DNA of 64,000 nucleotides, from assembly GCF_014337235.1 (NCBI RefSeq), contig NZ_CP060636.1. One strand, given 5' to 3'. The position numbers and the translations under genes were made by a program. The notes below the pieces were generated by a model, which was given only the letters and a program-made list of their open reading frames with translations, ran no database searches and was not told where the DNA came from. Below, piece by piece: positions 6,354-52,480 of the stretch (the stretch's first letter is position 1; every line of letters begins with the position of its first letter). The stretch is from [Eubacterium] hominis. Lineage in GTDB: Bacteria; Bacillota_I; Bacilli_A; Erysipelotrichales; Erysipelotrichaceae.

Positions 6354-7139
6354 TTATTGTAAGAATCTAAATTCTCCAAATGAGGATGCAACATGGAAAT
6401 CAGGATTTGCGGTTTTAGGATCAACCCAGGAAATCCATTCTATCTTAGGATCCTTGCCAGAGGCTTCTGGTTTAGAAAATTCTGCACGATAAATACCCGC
6501 ACGCATGACATCATGATTGATTAATTTTAAATCTTGTAAAGATTTCATTGGAATCTTGCCTTCCACAATATAACCATCATCTGTTACTGTGGCTTTTGTT
6601 TCCAAACCTTCCATATTCCATTTACCATCAAACTTTCGATAATATTCGATAGAGTAATCGTGAACACGGCCTTTTGGATCAATTTCTAAACCGTAATATT
6701 TCTCCATGCCATCAGGACCAGGTTTATCAATGTAAGATCCCGCAAAGAATAGTTCTACACGATCTTCCATATCAACAGTACTCTCATCATCTTTCCAATT
6801 ATCATCCTGAAGTACTTCGCTATCTTTTACTGTAAAACAGAAATAGAAATTATCCTTATCATGGTATCCTTTAAATTCTGTGTATGGAGCTTCTTTTTTA
6901 TCCCATGGAAAATGAAAACCACCGGCTATAGCTGGAATATCCTTCCATACTTCATCATCCAGCTTGCCATCAACGTTAATTGATTTATCTCGTTTGACGA
7001 CATCATAGTGGGATGTAGAAGCTTCATTATAAGCAATCGTAGGTGTAGTAGGTGAAGAACTGCTGTTTGAGGAGCATCCGCCTAAAGCAAACATCGATGC
7101 GGCAAGAGCCAGCGTTGTCATGTACGTAAACTTTTTCAT
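6354..7139 (-). CDS. lipoprotein with carbohydrate-binding-module-family-9/DOMON-like domain
   Basis: lipobox LALGGC/SS; DGKLDDEVWKDIP motif typical of CBM9-like domains; RBS aaaggagaa upstream of MKKFTYM start. Confidence 0.5.
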   Translation of the reverse strand: MKKFTYMTTLALAASMFALGGCSSNSSSSPTTPTIAYNEASTSHYDVVKRDKSINVDGKLDDEVWKDIPAIAGGFHFPWDKKEAPYTEFKGYHDKDNFYFCFTVKDSEVLQDDNWKDDESTVDMEDRVELFFAGSYIDKPGPDGMEKYYGLEIDPKGRVHDYSIEYYRKFDGKWNMEGLETKATVTDDGYIVEGKIPMKSLQDLKLINHDVMRAGIYRAEFSKPEASGKDPKIEWISWVDPKTANPDFHVASSFGEFRFLQ

Positions 7140-28136: not shown

Positions 28137-30056
28137 TTATTCTTTGTCTTTATCAGGAAGCTCTTTTGTTACGATTTTGGATAACTGAGTTAAGATATCT
28201 TCATTTCCATTCAACGTAATACTTTCGACATTTTCTGAAATCTTTTCTAAATACTCTAATTCTTTTAAATGAGATAGTGCTTTACTATCTTCCATCATTT
28301 TGGCAGTATCCATCAATGTTTTTGTGGACGCAACATCTGCTTTCTGGGAAATGATAGATGCTTCTGCTTTTTTCTCCGCTATCAAAACAGTATTCATGAT
28401 ATCACGTATTTCATTTGGCAACGTAATATTTGTGATTCCAGCATCACTGATCTCAATAAATAAAGAAGCTCCTTTTTCTTTTAAACGTTTCGCAAATAAA
28501 TGGTTAATATTTTCTTTCTCATCTATGAATTCTTCAATACGATAGTTCCCAATGAGTTCACGCAGATTTAATTGAATCAATGAGTATAACTGATGCACAT
28601 AATTGTCAATTTCTGTATAAACTTGAATATAGTCAATTAGACGATAACGACATACAATATCCAAAGAAATGGTAACTTTGTCTTTGGTCAAAACTTCTTC
28701 ATCATTGATACGCAGCTGTTTTAAACGTATATCAAAAATATCGACATGTACTTTTGTCTTAGTATTCCAAAAATAATAGGTACCTGCATCCAAAATACAG
28801 ATAAGTTTATTATCATAGAATAAGCGTGCTTTTTCAAATTGAGATACTTCTATTTTCTGATACAGCGTATCTGGAATTGTATGGAAGATATAGCGTGGTA
28901 CATCATCACTTACAAGTGGATGTGATATATCAATAATGGTAAAGGTATGTTTTTCCAAGACATTCCAAAATGCATGTTTTCCTGTAGACAGACAGTCTTT
29001 GAAAATTCCATCAATGTAATGCAAGGCCAATTCTTCATCTTTCACTTCCACAATTGTGATAAATGGCATCACTTTTTCGTTTTTTATCAATAATTCCATT
29101 GGGCAATGGGCAGAAAACACTGGACGTTTCATCCATTGTACCTCTAAATCTACACGTGTCTTTGATTTCCAGAAATAATAAGTACCTGTGTCCAATAATG
29201 CCTCAAATACGTTATCGTAAAATAAGAAGGCTTTTTCATCCTGTGATATTTCTTCTTTTTGATAAAGTGATGGATCTAGCAAATCAAAGATATAGCGTGG
29301 AATATCATTTGTTGCCATAGGATTTGAGGTATCCACCAGTGTAAATTCATGATGATCAAGCGTATTCCAGAATGCATATTTCCCTGTCGTCAGACATTCT
29401 CTAAAAACACCATCCACAAAATGTAATGCAAGTTGTTCATCCTTGACTTCCACCATTGATATATAAGGCGCAAGTTTCTCATTTTTCACAAGCAGTTCTA
29501 ATGGACAGTTGATGGATTCAACTGGTAGTTTCATGGATAGAATTTCTAAATCAATATTGACTTTCGATTTCCAGAAATAATAGGTGCCGGCATCTAAAAT
29601 ATCCGTTAAGACATGGTCATAAAACAACAACCCTTTTTCATCCTGGTGGATGTCACCTTTGTGAAAAAACTTTTGATCCATTTGATCAAAGATATAGCGT
29701 GGGATATCATTTGCGACCATTGGTGTTGAGGTATCCACAATCGTAAATTCATGGAAATCAATGCAGTTCCAATATGCGTATTTTCCAGTTGTTAAACATT
29801 CTTTAAATGCACCATTGATAAAATGTAGTGCCAACTGTTCATCCTTTACTTCCACAACGGATGCCTGTGCTTGCAGTTCTGGATCCTTCAATAAGATATC
29901 CAAAGAACAGTTTTCTGAGTGAATTGGCTGGTCTAAAGATACGACTTCAATATCGTTATTGCCAAAGATATGATGATTGCCACTTTCCAGCAGTCTTGTA
30001 AATTTATTGTTTTTGAATAAAAAACCTTTCTGATTTTCATTAATGATGACTTTCAT
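28137..30056 (-). CDS. SPFH/band-7 domain protein with three tandem ~140-aa N-terminal repeat modules (soluble, no TM)
   Basis: C-terminal SPFH signature (LTKDKVTISLD...YR..D, ISDAGITNITLP, AEKKAEASIISQ); three internal repeats sharing VEVKDEQLALHF / TGKYAxWN / NDIPRYIFD; RBS gggagg. Confidence 0.7.
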   Translation of the reverse strand: MKVIINENQKGFLFKNNKFTRLLESGNHHIFGNNDIEVVSLDQPIHSENCSLDILLKDPELQAQASVVEVKDEQLALHFINGAFKECLTTGKYAYWNCIDFHEFTIVDTSTPMVANDIPRYIFDQMDQKFFHKGDIHQDEKGLLFYDHVLTDILDAGTYYFWKSKVNIDLEILSMKLPVESINCPLELLVKNEKLAPYISMVEVKDEQLALHFVDGVFRECLTTGKYAFWNTLDHHEFTLVDTSNPMATNDIPRYIFDLLDPSLYQKEEISQDEKAFLFYDNVFEALLDTGTYYFWKSKTRVDLEVQWMKRPVFSAHCPMELLIKNEKVMPFITIVEVKDEELALHYIDGIFKDCLSTGKHAFWNVLEKHTFTIIDISHPLVSDDVPRYIFHTIPDTLYQKIEVSQFEKARLFYDNKLICILDAGTYYFWNTKTKVHVDIFDIRLKQLRINDEEVLTKDKVTISLDIVCRYRLIDYIQVYTEIDNYVHQLYSLIQLNLRELIGNYRIEEFIDEKENINHLFAKRLKEKGASLFIEISDAGITNITLPNEIRDIMNTVLIAEKKAEASIISQKADVASTKTLMDTAKMMEDSKALSHLKELEYLEKISENVESITLNGNEDILTQLSKIVTKELPDKDKE

Positions 30057-30227
30057 AAAATTCCTCCCATCATGATTTCTATATGTAGGATTATACTAGA
30101 AATTAGAAATGAAAACACGTATATTTTAAAAGTTCCTGTGAAATATGGAAATGGGTTGTAAAAACAAGGCGAATTGTACAGATTTGACTAGTGATTTATG
30201 GAAGAAAAAACAGGTGGAATACACCTG

Positions 30228-31451
30228 TTAAGATGATGCTTTGAAATTATACAAAGGATGGATCGTTTTTATAATATCTACGGTATCTGCGATATTTTTT
30301 GTGATATCTTCCATGGATTTATAAGCCATAGGGCATTCATCCAGCGTATCAGAATTAATAGATGTAGAGAATATTCCATCCATTGTATTCGCAAATTCAT
30401 CTACCGTAAACAATTCTTTTGCTTTACCACGGCTATATAAACGTCCGGCACCATGAGGCGCAGAACAATTCCATTCATCATTGCCTTTACCAACACATAT
30501 CAAAGAGCCATCACGCATATTGATAGGAATCAATAAGATTTCACCTTCTTTTGCGGAAACTGCACCTTTTCGTATCATATTATTTTCATGATCAATATAA
30601 TTGTGTATTGTTTCAAAGTGATCAAAATCATCCAGTTTCATATCAAACATATGCTGGATTATGGTTTCCGCAATCATTCGACGATTTAATTTCGCAAATT
30701 CCTGGGCAATATTCATATCATGTAAGTAATCATCACGATAACTTCCTTCCAAGTAACAAAGCTCTTTTGGTGTTTTGATTTCCTTTGCTTCAAAGCTGTT
30801 TGCCAGTGCAACAAGGGCAGCTTGTATTTCTGATTTACGACCAGCTTCTTTATATTCTTTGATAATCTGTTCACGCTGTTCAAATAATTTATCTTTCCCA
30901 CGCATAAGATCATAAGCAAGATTCTGGTAGTAATCTGCGATTTGTTTACCTAAATTACGGCTTCCTGTATGAATCACAAGATAGTGATTTTCATCATCAT
31001 CTATATCAATTTCGATAAAGTGATTTCCACCACCAAGTGTCCCAATACTACGTTCAAAACGTCGTGTATCTTTTAATGAACGATAACAGCGAAGTTCTTG
31101 AATTGCTGGGAAACGTGTAATTCTTCCTGGATGTACATCAAAGCCATTAGGGACATATTTACGAATAACTTCATCCAGCTTCACAAAGTCAATAGGGGAT
31201 TTTCCCAGATTGACACATAACATACCACAACCAATATCCACACCAACAATATTAGGGATAACACGTTGATTTAAATCGGCAGTAAAACCAATGACACAGC
31301 CAGCACCTGCATGTACATCTGGCATGATTCTGATTTTACAATCTTCCACAAAGCTTTGATCACAAAGGGTTTTTATTTGCTCCAACGCAGTATCTTCCAC
31401 AACATCTGTGTATACAATGGCATTGGTATATGTTCCTTTAATTTCTATCAT
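30228..31451 (-). CDS. rtcB: RNA-splicing ligase RtcB (3'-phosphate/5'-hydroxy nucleic acid ligase)
   Basis: MPDVHAGAGCVIG, GGGNHFIEI, HTGSRNLG, HNY and SAPHGAGR motifs; 407 aa. Confidence 0.95.
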   Translation of the reverse strand: MIEIKGTYTNAIVYTDVVEDTALEQIKTLCDQSFVEDCKIRIMPDVHAGAGCVIGFTADLNQRVIPNIVGVDIGCGMLCVNLGKSPIDFVKLDEVIRKYVPNGFDVHPGRITRFPAIQELRCYRSLKDTRRFERSIGTLGGGNHFIEIDIDDDENHYLVIHTGSRNLGKQIADYYQNLAYDLMRGKDKLFEQREQIIKEYKEAGRKSEIQAALVALANSFEAKEIKTPKELCYLEGSYRDDYLHDMNIAQEFAKLNRRMIAETIIQHMFDMKLDDFDHFETIHNYIDHENNMIRKGAVSAKEGEILLIPINMRDGSLICVGKGNDEWNCSAPHGAGRLYSRGKAKELFTVDEFANTMDGIFSTSINSDTLDECPMAYKSMEDITKNIADTVDIIKTIHPLYNFKASS

Positions 31452-32554
31452 GATAATACCTCCTGTTTCTGTATAAATGCTGCTAATTGTGTAAGGATAT
31501 CACTATTCCCATTTAAGGTGATATTTCCTACATTTTCGCAGATTCTTTCTAAATATTCTAATTCTTTTAAGCGATATAAAGTTTTGTTCTCATCTAATAA
31601 TTTAGCGGTATTCAATAAAGAACGTGTTGACGCAACTTCTTCCCTTCGTGTAATGACATTGGCCTGTGCGCGTTTTTCTGCGATTAAAACCGTATTCATA
31701 ATCTCACGCATATCACCTGGTAAAATGATATCTTTGATACCAGCATCTGTGATATCAATGTAAAGAGAAGCAGCCCGCTGTTTTAATTGTTCAAAAACAT
31801 ACGTACCGATTTCTTCCTTGTTTTCTAACAGTTCCTCCATCTTATAGTTGCCAATATATTCACGTAATACCAACTGTGCCATGACATATAATTGTGTTAA
31901 ATAATCATCAATTTCAGTAAGAATTGCGACACAATCAGTAACACGATAATGAGCAACCATATTGATACGTAATGTGACTTTATCTTTTGTCAATACTTCC
32001 TGTCCTATGACATCTAACTGTTTCAATCGCATATCTACAATATCCACATCAACCATTGTTTTTGTATTCCAGAAATAATAAATACCAGCATCTAAAACAG
32101 TTATGAACTTCTGATCATAAAACAAGCGACCTTTTTCATATTGCGCAATGTTTACTTGTTGATAATAAGAACGTGGAATGTTCGCAAAGATATAGCGTGG
32201 AATATCATCCTCTACCATTGGTTCTTTTACATCTATATATTGTACTTTATGATTGTTTTCTATGTTCCAGTAAGCATACAAACCAGTAGGCAGACATTGT
32301 GAAAATTTACCATCGATATAGTGTAATGCATATTGTTCATCACCAACATCTATAATGGTAGCGTTCTTCTTGATTTCAGGAAACTGAATAAGTTTCTCCA
32401 AGGAACAATACATGGATGAAATTGGCTGGTTGATAGATAATAATTCTACTTTATCATTTGCGAAACAGTGATATGTTCCTGCATATAATAACTTAACAAA
32501 TTTACTTTTCCGATATAATAAACCTATTTGATTTTCATTAATTTTAATTTTCAT
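31448..32554 (-). CDS. SPFH/band-7 domain protein with one N-terminal repeat module (paralog of 28137-30056)
   Basis: same module plus SPFH C-terminus (LTKDKVTLRINMVAHYRVTD, ITDAGIKDIILP, AEKRAQANVITRR); stop overlaps rtcB start (ATGA); RBS aaaggagaaaa. Confidence 0.7.
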   Translation of the reverse strand: MKIKINENQIGLLYRKSKFVKLLYAGTYHCFANDKVELLSINQPISSMYCSLEKLIQFPEIKKNATIIDVGDEQYALHYIDGKFSQCLPTGLYAYWNIENNHKVQYIDVKEPMVEDDIPRYIFANIPRSYYQQVNIAQYEKGRLFYDQKFITVLDAGIYYFWNTKTMVDVDIVDMRLKQLDVIGQEVLTKDKVTLRINMVAHYRVTDCVAILTEIDDYLTQLYVMAQLVLREYIGNYKMEELLENKEEIGTYVFEQLKQRAASLYIDITDAGIKDIILPGDMREIMNTVLIAEKRAQANVITRREEVASTRSLLNTAKLLDENKTLYRLKELEYLERICENVGNITLNGNSDILTQLAAFIQKQEVLS

Positions 32555-32744
32555 ATTTTTCTCCTTTTATTTGATGATATGCATTCGTTTCAGCGGCAAA
32601 ATCATTAAGATTATGAATGTATCCTGCGAGTAAAAACTGGCAGAATAGATGCATAATCGATATCCTAACTTTGGCAAGGCTGAAACAAATGAGATCTGTG
32701 AAAGCATCCAATCATCTTTTACTTAATAATTAGTCCCAAACTAA

Positions 32745-32790
32745 TTGCAGGAGTCGAACCTGCGTAACGCCATGTTAAACCATTTTTTTA
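32745..32790 (-). other. tRNA T-arm-like hairpin (GCAGG-TTCGACT-CCTGC) plus adjacent hairpin in the presumptive leader of the SPFH-rtcB operon
   Basis: minus strand reads ...GGCGTTACGCAGGTTCGACTCCTGCAATTAGTTTGGGACTAATT; no D-arm or anticodon arm, so not a tRNA gene. Confidence 0.3.
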
Positions 32791-32945
32791 ATAAGCGGAT
32801 AGTTTCCGAAATACACACAAGTAAAGTTACTAGTGCATCGTTGTGGGATGAGAACCACTTCCTTGACCGCAAGGTTATTATAGGAAATATCAGGAAATAA
32901 ATCGTGAAAAAAAAGTTGCGAACGATAAATATATGAAATTTTTTA

Positions 32946-32995
32946 CCGATTATACTCGAAAACGACAGATTAGACTCAAGGCATTGACAAATAGC
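32946..32995 (-). promoter_or_regulatory. promoter/operator-like repeat copy 1 (minus strand TTGAGTCTAATCTGTCGTTTTCGAGTATAAT)
   Basis: ~48-bp direct repeat also present at 33200-33250 (~42/48 identical); minus strand carries a TATAAT -10-like box oriented toward the SPFH-rtcB operon. Confidence 0.4.
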
Positions 32996-33199
32996 TTTGA
33001 TTATGAAAAACTCAAATGAAAAAATACCGTTGACAACCATAGAAAGCCCGTTTAGAACCAGCCTATTGACAAAGATATAAAATAGTGAATGAATAAATTC
33101 ATATTCCTGTTTACCAATTAACCTCAAAAGCTAACCAGTTATCCCTTTTCTATTGACATAGAAGGAAATACTTGATTGAAATATATATAAACAGAATAC

Positions 33200-33250
33200 A
33201 GATTATCCTCGAAAATTACAGATTAGACTCAAGCTATTGACAAAAAGGGT
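33200..33250 (-). promoter_or_regulatory. promoter/operator-like repeat copy 2 (minus strand TTGAGTCTAATCTGTAATTTTCGAGGATAAT)
   Basis: direct repeat of 32946-32995; GATAAT -10-like box. Confidence 0.35.
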
Positions 33251-33339
33251 CACACATGATTTCTATATACAGATACTTTAAAACATTATTTACACATAAA
33301 AAACCTTGGAACTAACCAAGGCTTATACATAGTGATTCA

Positions 33340-34248
33340 TTATTTTATAGATAATGCTTTTTGTGACAATAAACGCCTTTTAATCTGATTAATAAAATGA
33401 TTTGGTTCTATGACTTTCACAAATGGACCAAAAGATAAAACGCGAATCAATAGTTCAGATTCATCTTCTCCATCATAAAACACTTTGACTTGATAATGGT
33501 TTTCATCTAACCGTTTCGCTTCTTTTTCAAAATGCGCAAAGTGTAACATCACACGCTCTAACGCATTACGCTCATCTACTAATTCCATCACAAAGTATTT
33601 CTTTTCTTCTGTACGCACATCTTTTGGATAATGGAATGCTTCTTTGATTTCTACCTCTAATATACGAGAAATATTAATTGTATATTTTTTATGATGATAT
33701 GCGATAATCAAACGGAACTTATCATCTTTTTGTGAATATTCTAATTGAAGTGGCATGCCATGAATGTTAGCACGTTTGCCTTTTCCTGTCACAAAATAGA
33801 CGGATACAGAGGATTGATCATGCAAGGCTTTGCGAATTGTCTTAAAGTTTTTAATATAAGCGGGATCAAAGTAATCATCATGATCATGGTACTGATCAAA
33901 ATAGACAATGTCATCCATTTGATAAAGTGGCATAATATCATCCAAGCCTTTAATAGACACATCAAATAATTGAATACGAGGATCAAGCAAAATAGCTTTT
34001 AACCAGCGTTTTTCTATGAGTGTAAGCGGCATAGTAGAAGGGTGTTTTACAGGTGTATGCATATCATCACATAAAAGCGGCCATTGATGATTCTTTAGCG
34101 CAGGCTCTATCGTTAAAAAGCTTTCAGAGAAGGCTGTTTCCTGAATGATGGAATGCATGATTTTCTCATTCAGGGTTCCTTTTATGGCTTGATCAATGAT
34201 GCGAGCAACACTTTCATAGTAGCATCCATATATCTCATGAAATAACAT
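33340..34248 (-). CDS. WYL-domain protein with C-terminal WCX-like extension (PafC/BrxR-like regulator, no obvious N-terminal HTH)
   Basis: GKRANIHGMPLQLEYSQKDDKFRLIIAYHHKKYTINISRILEVE WYL-like core and VLSFGPFVKVIEPNHF C-terminal motif. Confidence 0.55.
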   Translation of the reverse strand: MLFHEIYGCYYESVARIIDQAIKGTLNEKIMHSIIQETAFSESFLTIEPALKNHQWPLLCDDMHTPVKHPSTMPLTLIEKRWLKAILLDPRIQLFDVSIKGLDDIMPLYQMDDIVYFDQYHDHDDYFDPAYIKNFKTIRKALHDQSSVSVYFVTGKGKRANIHGMPLQLEYSQKDDKFRLIIAYHHKKYTINISRILEVEIKEAFHYPKDVRTEEKKYFVMELVDERNALERVMLHFAHFEKEAKRLDENHYQVKVFYDGEDESELLIRVLSFGPFVKVIEPNHFINQIKRRLLSQKALSIK

Positions 34249-35483
34249 TATGCATCACCTCCAATATCATATAATTCATACATTGCTTTTAAGTCAGCGC
34301 GAAACTGATTTTCAACAGTACGGTTTGAAAAATCCAATTGTTTTATACGACAGATAAAGGTACGAATCCAGGGAATCATTTCGTTTGTATCAAAAACATC
34401 AGCACGGAAAACTGCGGTATTTTTATCTAATCGTTCCACTTCACCAATCCGCTTTTCACGAACTAAGCGCTGATAGATAAATTCTTCATAATCAGAAAAG
34501 TAAATCTGAAATTCTACATGCTCGAGATGAATATTATGACTGCTGCAGCGAACACCCCACATATGTTTCTGTAGAGAAGATAAAAGTTCACGTTTTTTAT
34601 CAAATTGTGAGGAAGGTTCTAATAAGGTCACATGATCCATATAATCCATACGATAAGAAGAAATACGATGATAATGTTTATGATATGCGAATAAGTATTG
34701 TCGACCATTTTGTGTACTCACAAAGATTTTTAAGGGAATCAAATCCCACAAGATATTTTTTTGATGCTGCTTATGATGAATACGCACTTCACGTTTCTCC
34801 TGGATTGCGCACAAGAGTTGATATAAAATTTCACTGTCTAATGCGTGTGCGATATAGTAATGTTTAAAAGTAAAAATGGAATCTTGAACAGATAATTGAT
34901 GCATCAGATAATTACCAATAACACCCACCATTCCCATCTGTGCAAAGAAGCAAATAGCATCATGACAGGAAGAAAGATCTAGCGTATCGGCTCTGTGGTA
35001 GGATAATTGTTTACCTGTTTTTTCACTGACAATCAATCCAAGCTGTGTATACTCCTTTAACTTTTTTCGTACTGTAGCTTTATCAATCATCAAAGGATCC
35101 ACAAAGCAGGAGAGGTGGTCCTGATCGATTTGATCTATGATTTCATTTAATGTATAGCATTGCTCTGGATCATAAAGGATATCTAATAAATAAAAATGCA
35201 GTGTGATATCAATATCTGTAAATGATTTGGCAAGAAATGCCTGATACAAAGGATTTTGTGTAGTATGACGGCTGTCTATGGATAAGAATACATTTTTTCC
35301 TTCTTCACTCTGAGTAAATCGCATATAATCTTTTAGATAACTTTCAATTCTTCTTCGTTCGTTATCATAAGAGCGCAAACTTTTCTGATCAAAATCCTGT
35401 CTACTTTTAAAACCATATACATAAAAATCAATCATATATGTTCTGATTTTCTCAAAGTTTTTTATTAGTTCTTGATATGCCAT
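34248..35483 (-). CDS. HTH + WYL-domain transcriptional regulator (PafB/BrxR/CapW-like)
   Basis: HTH-like segment LNEIIDQIDQ...ATVRKKLKEYTQLGLI; WYL-like NGRQYLFAYHKHYHRISSYRMDYM; 1-nt overlap with downstream WYL gene; RBS gcgaggga before MAYQELI. Confidence 0.55.
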   Translation of the reverse strand: MAYQELIKNFEKIRTYMIDFYVYGFKSRQDFDQKSLRSYDNERRRIESYLKDYMRFTQSEEGKNVFLSIDSRHTTQNPLYQAFLAKSFTDIDITLHFYLLDILYDPEQCYTLNEIIDQIDQDHLSCFVDPLMIDKATVRKKLKEYTQLGLIVSEKTGKQLSYHRADTLDLSSCHDAICFFAQMGMVGVIGNYLMHQLSVQDSIFTFKHYYIAHALDSEILYQLLCAIQEKREVRIHHKQHQKNILWDLIPLKIFVSTQNGRQYLFAYHKHYHRISSYRMDYMDHVTLLEPSSQFDKKRELLSSLQKHMWGVRCSSHNIHLEHVEFQIYFSDYEEFIYQRLVREKRIGEVERLDKNTAVFRADVFDTNEMIPWIRTFICRIKQLDFSNRTVENQFRADLKAMYELYDIGGDA

Positions 35484-35560
35484 ATCTATCCCTCGCAATC
35501 TTTTCTAATCATAGCAAATAACCAAAAGAAAAGAAAGCACTCTTATGCTTTCCTTTATGA

Positions 35561-49962: not shown

Positions 49963-50590
49963 AATAAAAACCCTCCTTTTTTGTTTTATCATAGAGCCTC
50001 CATATATAGACTTAATGAACTTTATGCCCATCGTGTAAGTCTTTAATTGATTAGTCGTAAGATGATAATTTGTGTTTTTGATGAAGAAGCTAGTGAATGA
50101 TAGCTTTTTTATAAGTCATTTTAAACTATTTTTTGTAAACGTTTTCTAATATAATAATACCATATAAAGGTTGTTTGTCAATGATGTATATATCGTAAAA
50201 TATTTATAATAAGTTTGACAAGGAATAAAAGGAATACAATAATCTAAAAACATTTTTTATATAGGAAAAGAGAATATTCATGAACACAAAAAAACGTTAA
50301 CTTTTATTTATTGAATAATTATATATCAAATATTTAAAAATAATAATTTTAGTTTCCCTATTTTAGCGCCTATAATCTTAATATTAGAACTTTTCACAAT
50401 CAATAATAGTGATTCTAGTGAAATACTGATATTGTCAATATTATAAATTTATGCTACATATTGTTATTATTGATGTTTGCAGACTTATATTCATTAGTAA
50501 TATTTTAATCAGTATTTTTCAATAAATGAATAAAAAACGTTAAAAATCATATAATAAAAATGAATATTTGCATAAAATATGCAAAATTCT

Positions 50591-50619
50591 TTGACAAAAC
50601 AGTTATATGGAGGTATTAT
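50591..50619 (+). promoter_or_regulatory. sigma-70-type promoter TTGACA-N17-TATTAT for the ATPase/HEPN pair
   Basis: exact -35 hexamer, 17-bp spacer, near-consensus -10; ~25-nt leader with RBS aaaaaggag before ATG 50645. Confidence 0.5.
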
Positions 50620-50644
50620 GAAAATGAAAAAGGAGATGGATATC

Positions 50645-51898
50645 ATGTTGTTAGAGTTTTCTTGTTCAAATTATAAATCAATTATGAATAAAGTTACATT
50701 TTCATTTTTAGCAAGTAAAGACGACACGTATGAAGATGAACTGAAATCATTTTCTAATTTTAAGGTATTAAGATCTGCTGTGATTTATGGACCAAATGGA
50801 TCTGGGAAAAGTAACTTTTTGAACGCGATTGAATTTATGCAAGGGCTAATTCTAAATAGTATAAATTATCAACCCGGAGATGATATCTCGCAATACGCAC
50901 ATAAATTAAGTGGAGATGAAACACCTTCTATTTTTTCAATGCAGTTTATAAAAAATGATATCCGATATGCCTATGGATTCTCATTACGAAATAGGTCAGT
51001 TGACGAAGAATATCTATATTATTTCCCTAAGAATAGACAAGTTAAAATTTTTGAAAGAAAAGGAATTAGCATTAAACCTGGCGATAAATACAAATCCGCA
51101 TTTGAACTAAGTTATGAAGTTTTAAAAGAAAATAGATTGTTTTTATCATGTGCAGCTAATTTTTCAAAAATAAAAGAGATTGAACAAGCCTTTTTGTTCT
51201 TTAAGGAAGATATTGTGGTCTATAATCCAGAAGTAAATAACTGGACAGAATACTCCATGAAGCTAATACAAAAAAATGAAAAAATTAAGGAGATTTTTAT
51301 TAATATTTTAAATTCTCTTGGTACAGGAATCAGGGACATCGATACAAAATTTGAAAAAAGAAATATTAGAGTTACAGATTTATCTAAGGAAATGCCAGAT
51401 ACTTTAAAATCTTTGCTATTTGGTGAAACAAATCAATTAAGTGTAAAGTTAATTTATGATCATTTTGAAACAGATTTAGTGAGTGAAGAATCAAGAGGTG
51501 TTAAGAAATTATTTGAAGTAATTTGTCCTATCATAGATATATTAAAGAATGGTAAAATTCTTATATGTGATGAGATTGAAACCAGTCTACATGAATCCAT
51601 CGTTTGGGAAATAGTGTCATTGTTTAAAAAAGCACAAACAAATAAATTTGCTCAATTACTTTTTACTACTCATGATACTAGTTTATTAGACTCAAAGCTA
51701 TTTAGAAGAGATCAGATTTGGTTTACTGAATTAGATGATAGTAGATCAACTGATTTATATTCGTTAGCAGAAATCAAGAATGTAAGAAAGACAGAAAACC
51801 TTAGAAATGGATATATGTTAGGCAAATATAGAGCAATGCCAATCATGAGTCAGAATATTTATTCTTTATTTAACGACGATAAAAAAGAAGGTGTTTAG
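50645..51898 (+). CDS. ABC-type (AAA_15/AAA_21-like) ATPase of a putative two-gene defence/abortive-infection module
   Basis: N-terminal MLLEFSCSNYKSI...VIYGPNGSGKSNFLNAIEF Walker A; C-terminal ILICDEIETSLHESIV Walker B/D-loop and LFTTHDTSLLD H-loop. Confidence 0.75.
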   Translation: MLLEFSCSNYKSIMNKVTFSFLASKDDTYEDELKSFSNFKVLRSAVIYGPNGSGKSNFLNAIEFMQGLILNSINYQPGDDISQYAHKLSGDETPSIFSMQFIKNDIRYAYGFSLRNRSVDEEYLYYFPKNRQVKIFERKGISIKPGDKYKSAFELSYEVLKENRLFLSCAANFSKIKEIEQAFLFFKEDIVVYNPEVNNWTEYSMKLIQKNEKIKEIFINILNSLGTGIRDIDTKFEKRNIRVTDLSKEMPDTLKSLLFGETNQLSVKLIYDHFETDLVSEESRGVKKLFEVICPIIDILKNGKILICDEIETSLHESIVWEIVSLFKKAQTNKFAQLLFTTHDTSLLDSKLFRRDQIWFTELDDSRSTDLYSLAEIKNVRKTENLRNGYMLGKYRAMPIMSQNIYSLFNDDKKEGV

Positions 51899-52480
51899 AT
51901 GGAAGAAAGGTCATTAGATTTACTACCGAGGTTGGAGGATACTCGTGATAGGCAAATTCCCCAAATTTTGAAATTTGAATTAAATGAAATAAAAGCACAT
52001 TTTGATGAGGACTTATCTGCAATATCAAGTTTGTTTACAGTATTTAAGCAAAATGAGAAAAATGATGTTTGTGCAAAGTTAATCTTGAGATCGCAAGTTG
52101 TTTTGTTGGAAAGTGCTTTTGATTTTTACTTACATGAAATAACAAAATTTGGTGTAAATAAAATCTTTGAGGGATCATGGGTGTCAACAGAGAAATATAA
52201 AAACATAGTCATAAAATTAGAAATGGTTGAAAAAATCTTAAACAATGAAGTTAGCGAAAATTGGTTTTTTGAGTTTATAAATCAATATTATTCAAAAGAA
52301 ACGATGGTTTCTTTTGAATCGATAAAAGATCAAATGAACTTATTAGGTATAAGAATACAAGATATTGCAGATAAGGCTTTTTATGAACAAGGTTCTTCTA
52401 AGCCAACAATAACTAAAATGAAAAACATTGTAAATGCGTTATATAAGAGAAGAAATATCATTGCCCATCAGTCAAATTGA
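51899..52480 (+). CDS. small partner protein with C-terminal HEPN-like RNxxxH motif (RRNIIAHQSN); ORF interrupted by in-frame TGA
   Basis: start overlaps ATPase stop (TAGATGG); Rx4H motif; same frame stays open for 38 codons after TGA at 52478-52480. Confidence 0.45.
   Translation: MEERSLDLLPRLEDTRDRQIPQILKFELNEIKAHFDEDLSAISSLFTVFKQNEKNDVCAKLILRSQVVLLESAFDFYLHEITKFGVNKIFEGSWVSTEKYKNIVIKLEMVEKILNNEVSENWFFEFINQYYSKETMVSFESIKDQMNLLGIRIQDIADKAFYEQGSSKPTITKMKNIVNALYKRRNIIAHQSN

Follow-up and report, generated by a model that had tools for sequence, protein, structure and literature searches.

RtcB repair operons are widespread and, to our knowledge, their switching and the roles of their RNA partners are known only for the RtcR/Y-RNA type. 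Operators of the AgrA/LytTR type consist of two imperfect direct repeats of about 9 bp with a spacer of 12–13 bp. The AgrA dimer binds two direct repeats just upstream of promoters with suboptimal spacers (PMC4227749). The Salmonella rsr-yrlBA-rtcBA operon is the closest studied analogue of the locus described here (PMC7790460). [quoted passage not shown] Here we analyzed a stretch of 64,000 nt from [Eubacterium] hominis (contig NZ_CP060636.1; in the following the window) and focused on the gap of 785 nt between the regulator gene WYL302 (33340–34248) and the first SPFH gene (31448–32554) of an SPFH-rtcB operon, both on the minus strand. We consider it probable that this gap is a composite of a terminator, an array of repeated modules, the operon promoter and a structured-RNA gene. 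The host is an Amedibacillus (Erysipelotrichaceae).

A first-pass annotation of the window had pointed out two direct repeats and five plus-strand TTGACA hexamers in the gap and had read them as a duplicated promoter or a multi-site operator array. Both sequence features were confirmed. The direct repeat comprises 51 nt (32944–32994 and 33197–33247, spacing 253) with 44 of 51 positions identical (86%), and in a local alignment a weak similarity continues over about 82 nt in total, with a score of 81 compared to 31 ± 5.5 in shuffled sequences. The hexamers start at 32984, 33030, 33066, 33153 and 33237, so that five of them lie on one strand within 259 nt, where about 0.16 would be expected from the 40 occurrences on both strands of the window. 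Four are spaced 84, 87 and 82 nt apart, as had been claimed; the fifth (33030) falls within a half-site of module C and is incidental, since the sister species L093 has GCAATC at this place. We observed that the two repeats are the outer ones of four modules of ~85 nt in the order A-B-C-A (array 33248–32931, Table 1). Each module is made up of TTGTCAAT and two direct half-sites 20 nt apart; on the plus strand this reads as two direct repeats of 9–13 nt with a period of 20 nt, followed 10 nt later by TTGACA. In the 51-nt copies the half-sites are 15 nt long (TTGAGTCTAATCTGT and TCGAGkATAATCkGT, at 32979–32965, 32959–32945, 33232–33218 and 33212–33198) and are confined to this region of the window. 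The array was not detected by Tandem Repeats Finder, as the inner units are too diverged. Of the earlier reading, the multi-site operator array with promoter-like modules is supported; the modules do not appear to be the promoter of the operon.

The likely nature of the modules emerged from a search for similar sites elsewhere. A first pattern (TTGTCAAT..TTGAGTCTAATCTGT) gave no matches in a metagenome scan, and a scan of viral contigs gave none either. The double half-site pattern was found in exactly two metagenome contigs, in both of them between genes for an AgrC-like kinase and AgrB, with a LytTR response regulator upstream (Pfam LytTR, GHKL and AgrB). Read toward agrB, this site is AACAGATTAGACTC-N6-AACAGATTAGACTC-AAAGTA-TTGATT-16-TAAAAT. 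Aligned in register, TTGACA of the modules takes the place of TTGATT, i.e. the −35 position, and as TTGACA follows the proximal repeat by 10 nt in every module, the repeats are located immediately upstream of the −35 element, as in AgrA/LytTR-type promoters. The repeats of the A modules (ACAGATTAG and ACmGATTAT) have an 11-nt spacer and a period of 20, the same period as at the species’ own agrB promoter; module C fits the published LytTR consensus, and the core of A has one extra base. At the level of sequence the A modules are almost identical to the promoter from which agrB is read in the species’ own agr-like locus, and the modules altogether look like AgrA/LytTR-type operators with a −35 hexamer that lie on the plus strand and face away from SPFH-rtcB. 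Their orientation is divergent from the operon promoter and toward the 3′ end of the WYL genes, which reverses the direction that had first been assigned to the repeats, because the agrB alignment makes TTGACA the −35 element of a plus-strand unit. A sister species carries the same operator at its own agrB promoter. The regulator of the agr-like locus is P0269, a LytTR response regulator of 228 aa (Response_reg and LytTR domains). Its longest contig has 3,879,051 nt, as has the longest contig of the window’s WYL302 and SPFH368, so the agr-like locus and the window appear to share one chromosome; the locus with its LytTR regulator, kinase and AgrB thus appears to belong to the 3.88-Mb genome of the window. 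Within the 64-kb window itself no LytTR, AgrB or AgrC homologues were found.

In the most likely mechanism, the phosphorylated LytTR regulator P0269 would bind the modules, so that the locus would respond to cell density or a peptide signal. Proximal module A stands back-to-back with the operon promoter, as in agr P2/P3, and the distal A module may give rise to a short plus-strand transcript that runs into the terminator of the WYL genes and is antisense to their mRNA. As at P2/P3 of Staphylococcus aureus, which are served by the LytTR domain of AgrA, direct-repeat pairs stand just upstream of a −35 hexamer, two promoters are placed back-to-back, and the same operator is found at the regulator’s own agrB promoter. 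In contrast to the S. aureus system, however, the period is 20 instead of 21–22 nt, the core is CAGATTA, the modules are of three diverged types and stand in tandem in variable numbers, the partner promoter is that of an operon for RNA repair, and a perfect −35 element is combined with a poor −10 element. Between the distal A module and the WYL terminator we noticed a stretch (33250–33300) that is about 88% identical to L087 and L093, far more than the module spacers; it may contain the core and start of a plus-strand promoter or a further binding site. A search for a small plus-strand open reading frame (ORF) after the modules yielded only one of 25 codons, starting inside the promoter spacer, and one of 9 codons, and this possibility was rejected. 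A plus-strand small RNA with its own terminator is a weak possibility, as neither the scan nor folding supports such a terminator. DnaA boxes or iterons were considered as well, since the reversed half-sites resemble TTATCCACA at 6–7 of 9 positions by eye, and were rejected, because there is no origin context and the agr match accounts for the sites better. In the agr-like locus L098 a 45-codon ORF (6625–6762) overlaps the end of AgrB in the place of agrD and has no cysteine.

The first-pass annotation had suggested comparing the repeat copy number across related strains, and this number indeed varies. We found one module in L087 and L094, two species with a WYL302 about 86% identical, two in L095, a strain at 98% identity, four in the window and 11 in L093. 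In the latter the gap has 1688 nt and contains one A module, a 330-nt insert, three A-B-C units and a final A. The modules are absent from relatives at 61% identity (L088, L090 and L092) and from all Clostridia examined. The array is therefore lineage-specific with a variable copy number; it would grow and shrink via recombination between A modules. The module structure and all three module types are kept between species; the motif parts are 72–83% identical and the spacers 45–67%, with 45–61% for the spacer of module B. Five genomes have the array, and the distance from the proximal A module to the conserved promoter box described below is 65–66 nt in four of them; in L093 it is about 74 nt. 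The ~330-nt insert of L093 (4075–4380, a part of it also present in L094) lies between the first A module and the array, contains a hairpin (CACTTTCAAAA...TTTTGAAAGTG) and has on the opposite strand a strong ribosome-binding site followed by a 7-codon ORF. Long gaps in other lineages were inspected for upstream arrays as well and turned out to contain terminators or insertions instead.

For the operon promoter we compared the gap with the corresponding regions of other genomes. A search with the SPFH protein gave 6,894 proteins at E ≤ 1e-10, and the genomic context was looked at for about 80 loci; the scan of a genome collection with the SPFH alignment gave these 80 loci, mostly from Clostridia metagenome-assembled genomes. 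The order WYL416-WYL302-gap (about 450–750 nt)-SPFH-RtcB is kept in about 59 of the 80. In 76 distinct sequences from 78 loci we observed a box with the consensus agTTCGCAgcTTTTTTTCCgtGa at a constant distance to a −10 element, followed by a conserved RNA start (ttgcaagg) across loci. The box is usually found right after the WYL302 stop codon; in the window, box and −10 element lie downstream of the repeats. The operon promoter is thus probably this box together with TATAAT (32882–32877) rather than the repeats, with transcription predicted to start near 32870. The leader of more than 390 nt that the first-pass annotation had derived from the repeats is not retained, as this promoter lies downstream of them and is followed by a structured RNA with a T-arm.

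The paired WYL regulator genes adjoin the regulated promoter in a PafBC-like layout, and from the co-occurrence of box and WYL pair in the 78 loci we infer that the pair binds the conserved box; this is probably where a WYL heterodimer acts in the manner of PafBC. Compared with the described WYL regulators (the mycobacterial heterodimer PafBC, DriD, BrxR and CapW), the locus shares the two adjacent WYL genes of PafBC, a conserved site just upstream of the −10 element where a normal −35 is missing, and, presumably, the control of a nucleic-acid damage response. It differs in an unrelated operator sequence and in its ligand, which here is presumed to be damaged RNA. Two other readings of the box were discarded: in an extracytoplasmic function sigma factor promoter (CGCAAC...CGTG) the spacing would be 8 nt and not 16–17, and for a LexA/Cheo box the second half is missing. 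In L073 (intergenic positions 1–250) the box is split by an insertion of ~205 nt flanked by an 18-nt direct duplication (TTTTGAGTTCGCAGCTTT), which suggests that a small mobile element has inserted there.

Downstream of the promoter the alignments indicate a conserved structured RNA of ~290 nt with a tRNA T-arm and two covarying domains. In the 5′ domain 10 of 15 pairs show compensatory changes (RNAalifold, 54 sequences), among them pairs of the closing helix and of the AUGCAC/GUGUAU helix, e.g. A-U to G-C in 25 sequences. The support for the 3′ domain is 27 of 32 pairs with compensatory changes and 89% of cells paired, compared to 65% in shuffled and 36–47% in slid alignments. When 40 Clostridia sequences, none of them from the window’s lineage, were used to build a covariance model, this model recovered the 3′ domain of the window with 50.5 bits (E = 7e-14) as its single match in the whole 64 kb. 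The T-loop (GGTTCGAnTCC) was found in 56 of 59 homologous intergenic regions, many of which have two. Neither the window nor the intergenic regions from 12 related loci had a match to an Rfam family at or above its gathering score, and only the T-arm gave a local match. The promoter would drive an RNA of ~290 nt, composed of the 5′ domain, the T-arm, a hairpin and the 3′ domain, that runs directly into the ribosome-binding site of SPFH-rtcB, and this RNA is probably a partner or decoy of the SPFH/RtcB RNA-repair proteins. Many relatives (L003, L006, L058, L047, L052 and other Clostridia) have a second T-loop hairpin (GGGGUUCAACUCCCC), and some have a perfect anticodon-like arm before the main T-arm (GUGGA-CUUUUAA-UCCAC in L058); tRNA mimicry therefore seems to be fuller there than in the window. 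The possibility that GUGCACG forms an acceptor stem with the strand that follows the T-arm was rejected, as covariation does not support such a pairing and that strand forms a hairpin of its own. A 128-aa ORF (32741–33127, minus strand) that spans the T-arm and the promoter was dismissed as spurious.

The structured RNA fits the b7a-tRNA prediction of 2016 as cited in the preprint on YrlA and is a candidate for this RNA. Both are non-coding RNAs with tRNA features beside a Band-7/SPFH gene and rtcB, presumed to be partners of the scaffold protein. However, the RNA in the window resembles a tRNA in its T-arm only, without acceptor, D or anticodon arm; it is about 290 nt long and contains two further covarying domains. 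With the YrlA/YrlB Y RNAs of Salmonella it shares the co-transcription of a tRNA-mimicking RNA upstream of rtcB and the presence of a ligand-sensing regulator (RtcR there, the WYL pair here). In contrast to the Salmonella operon, no Ro60/Rsr (TROVE) gene is present, the proteins being WYL, WYL, Band_7, RtcB and Band_7; the presumed partner protein is SPFH, and instead of a sigma-54/RtcR promoter there is one of the sigma-A type, accompanied by the box associated with the WYL pair. Rfam Y RNA families had no match at E ≤ 10 in the window.

Several observations weigh against reading the modules as agr-type operators and the RNA as tRNA-like. The repeat period is 20 nt and not the 21–22 nt of classical LytTR sites, and the half-site core is CAGATTA and not CAGTTA. 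No module has a good −10 element 16–18 nt past TTGACA, as hexamers with both A2 and T6 are missing there, and none is called by the promoter scan; only in the distal module is TCTATA/TATATA found 19–21 nt past TTGACA. Scan and folding revealed no clear plus-strand terminator or ORF downstream of the modules. The modules point away from the operon, and copy-number variation as well as absence from relatives at 61% identity would also be expected of neutral repeats. The placement of the agr-like locus in the same genome is based on the equal size of 3,879,051 nt, not on contig sequence. Neither ARAGORN nor the Rfam tRNA model reports a tRNA in the window; among 26 related loci, ARAGORN finds an unusual tRNA of 80 nt in two. 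Given the missing −10, plus-strand terminator and ORF and the period of 20, we can only infer binding of the regulator, a plus-strand transcript and an effect of the array on SPFH-rtcB.

Other explanations of the array have to be weighed against these points. The first-pass annotation had assigned the repeats to the WYL pair, so that the modules would be operators at which several WYL dimers bind and control the operon. They do adjoin the WYL genes, and the 20-nt distance of the half-sites would be compatible with a dimer that has two winged-helix domains. However, about 70 other WYL-WYL-SPFH-RtcB loci with orthologous WYL pairs lack the modules, while all of them have the near-invariant TTCGCA-T7-CCGTGA box, which has no clear similarity to the half-sites; the modules match the agrB promoter instead, and we regard the assignment as highly improbable. 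It also seems very unlikely that the A modules are duplicated minus-strand sigma-A promoters (TTGAGT-19-TATAAT or GATAAT) sending longer transcripts through the box and the RNA into SPFH-rtcB. A −10-like box pointing toward the operon had been noted before and is present, as a perfect TATAAT (32954–32949) in the proximal copy and GATAAT in the other, and 19-nt spacers do occur in promoters of activator-dependent systems. Nevertheless, its TAAT is the core of a regulator half-site: the hexamer varies by copy and species (GATAAT, TCTAAT, TATAAT) exactly as the half-site does, TTGAGT and the hexamer both lie within the direct half-sites, modules B and C have no such hexamer, and the promoter scan does not call these promoters. 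A functionless minisatellite, in which the agrB promoter was copied into the gap and unequal recombination then changed the number of copies, so that only the conserved promoter and the RNA matter, would agree with the range from 1 to 11 copies, the poor −10 elements and the missing array in the 61%-identity relatives and all Clostridia examined. We consider it unlikely, because the exact 15-mer TTGAGTCTAATCTGT is kept in four species although WYL302 differs by about 14%, the diverged types B and C are kept between species with motif identity above spacer identity, and in four of five genomes the distance between the proximal A module and the box is constant.

With regard to the RNA, a cis-acting leader of SPFH-rtcB (a riboswitch or attenuator) instead of a separate RNA cofactor is a doubtful alternative, albeit one to be taken seriously: the 3′ domain ends 17–45 nt before the ribosome-binding site (17 nt in the window) and no terminator lies in between. 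On the other hand, we saw no terminator/antiterminator pair, no helix sequestering the ribosome-binding site and no Rfam match, the T-arm and the anticodon-like arms of the relatives point to tRNA mimicry, and the analogous rsr-yrlBA-rtcBA operon co-transcribes stand-alone RNAs (PMC7790460).

Taking AgrA/LytTR-type modules and a separate structured RNA as the preferred reading, a broader picture can be drawn, which we put forward tentatively and would not yet call probable. The WYL-SPFH-RtcB loci of gut Clostridia and Erysipelotrichia would encode an undescribed RNA of ~290–450 nt, consisting of the 5′ domain, one or two T-loop arms, an optional anticodon-like arm and the five-helix 3′ domain, that serves a soluble SPFH/RtcB machine as cofactor or damage sensor. 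Its promoter would be switched by a WYL heterodimer that senses damaged RNA, and in Amedibacillus it would also be wired to agr-type quorum sensing via an expandable array, possibly through antisense RNA against the WYL genes. LytTR operators and the predicted Band-7/RtcB tRNA-like RNA are already known kinds of elements; the tandem variable array back-to-back with a WYL-box promoter and the full architecture of the RNA are new. The locus offers a second type of RtcB operon, with a near-invariant box tied to a WYL pair and a strongly covarying RNA family, absent from Rfam, that we saw in gut Firmicutes at about 80 loci. It also opens the b7a-tRNA prediction to a direct test in a species from the human gut that can be cultivated. 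If the reading of the array is true, it would be the first indication of an agr-like system feeding an RNA-repair operon, and the array provides a natural operator copy-number series (1, 2, 4 and 11) for dosage effects; if the array is inert, the RNA family and its promoter would be the lasting result.

Table 1. Features of the gap and its flanking genes (window coordinates)
Feature	Position	Strand	Remarks
Module A, distal (second repeat of the first-pass annotation)	33165–33248	+	ACAGATTAT-N11-ACAGATTAG-N10-TTGACA (33237–33242); in register with agrB promoter of L096/L098
Module B	33078–33164	+	Half-sites ACCAATTAACCTC / ACCAGTTATCCCT, then TTGACA (33153–33158); type kept in L093, L095
Module C	32996–33077	+	Half-sites ACCGTTGACAACC / CCCGTTTAGAACC, then TTGACA (33066–33071)
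Module A, proximal (first repeat of the first-pass annotation)	32931–32995	+	ACCGATTAT-N11-ACAGATTAG-N10-TTGACA (32984–32989)
Conserved promoter box CGTTCGCAAC-T8-CACGA, candidate WYL operator	32902–32924	−	About −32 to −54 from the predicted start
−10 hexamer TATAAT of the conserved promoter	32877–32882	−	Extended form TGGTAAAAT in most Clostridia
RNA 5′ domain	32795–32870	−	Closing helix GCGG (32870–67) / CCGC (32798–95)
RNA 5′ domain, inner parts	32811–32858	−	Hairpin GUGG/CCAC (32858–43); helix AUGCAC (32838–33) / GUGUAU (32816–11)
tRNA-type T-arm GCAGG-UUCGACU-CCUGC	32747–32763	−	Local T-arm match, tmRNA/tRNA clan, E = 0.0022
7-bp hairpin (AAUUAGU-UUGGG-ACUAAUU)	32728–32746	−	Directly after the T-arm; same place in all relatives, sequence differs
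RNA 3′ domain, five-helix rod	32582–32691	−	Conserved loops GGAUAUCG, CCA...CGC, CUUAA, GCCGC
Ribosome-binding site AGGAG of the SPFH gene	32561–32565	−	ATG at 32554
Intrinsic terminator of the WYL416-WYL302 operon, 9-bp stem and T-run	33301–33324	−	Terminator scan
WYL416 (34248–35498) and WYL302 (33340–34248), overlapping WYL-type regulator genes, 416 aa and 302 aa	33340–35498	−	Pfam WYL on WYL416
Operon SPFH368-RtcB-SPFH639	28137–32554	−	Pfam Band_7 and RtcB

The genes of the locus are all located on the minus strand, in the order WYL416, WYL302, terminator, gap, SPFH368, RtcB and SPFH639. Homologues of WYL302 carry PF13280/PF25583 and are named WYL domain proteins. According to the terminator scan, the hairpin stands between the WYL genes and the RNA gene, and a longer form of it is kept in L087, L093 and L094. 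The Band-7/SPFH gene adjoins rtcB in the window, with overlapping genes (Pfam Band_7 and RtcB). Upstream of the regulator pair only about 60 nt (35499–35560) separate an Fe-dependent repressor gene from WYL416, much of which is a terminator-like hairpin; as neither the box nor a module occurs in this stretch, nothing there points to autoregulation of the WYL genes via these motifs.

In SPFH639 (28137–30056, minus strand) the N-terminal domain of SPFH368 (~135 aa) is present three times in tandem, together with one Band_7 domain; the gene for SPFH639 was found in the close relatives L081–L086 and is absent from L088 and L092. Reading the sequences by eye, we recognized no obvious membrane segment in the SPFH proteins of the locus. 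Elsewhere in the window (50579–52480, plus strand) the genes for an AbiEii-like AAA_21 ATPase and, after it, a HEPN RiboL-PSP protein form a putative RNase-type defence/toxin pair located 18 kb from the RtcB repair operon.
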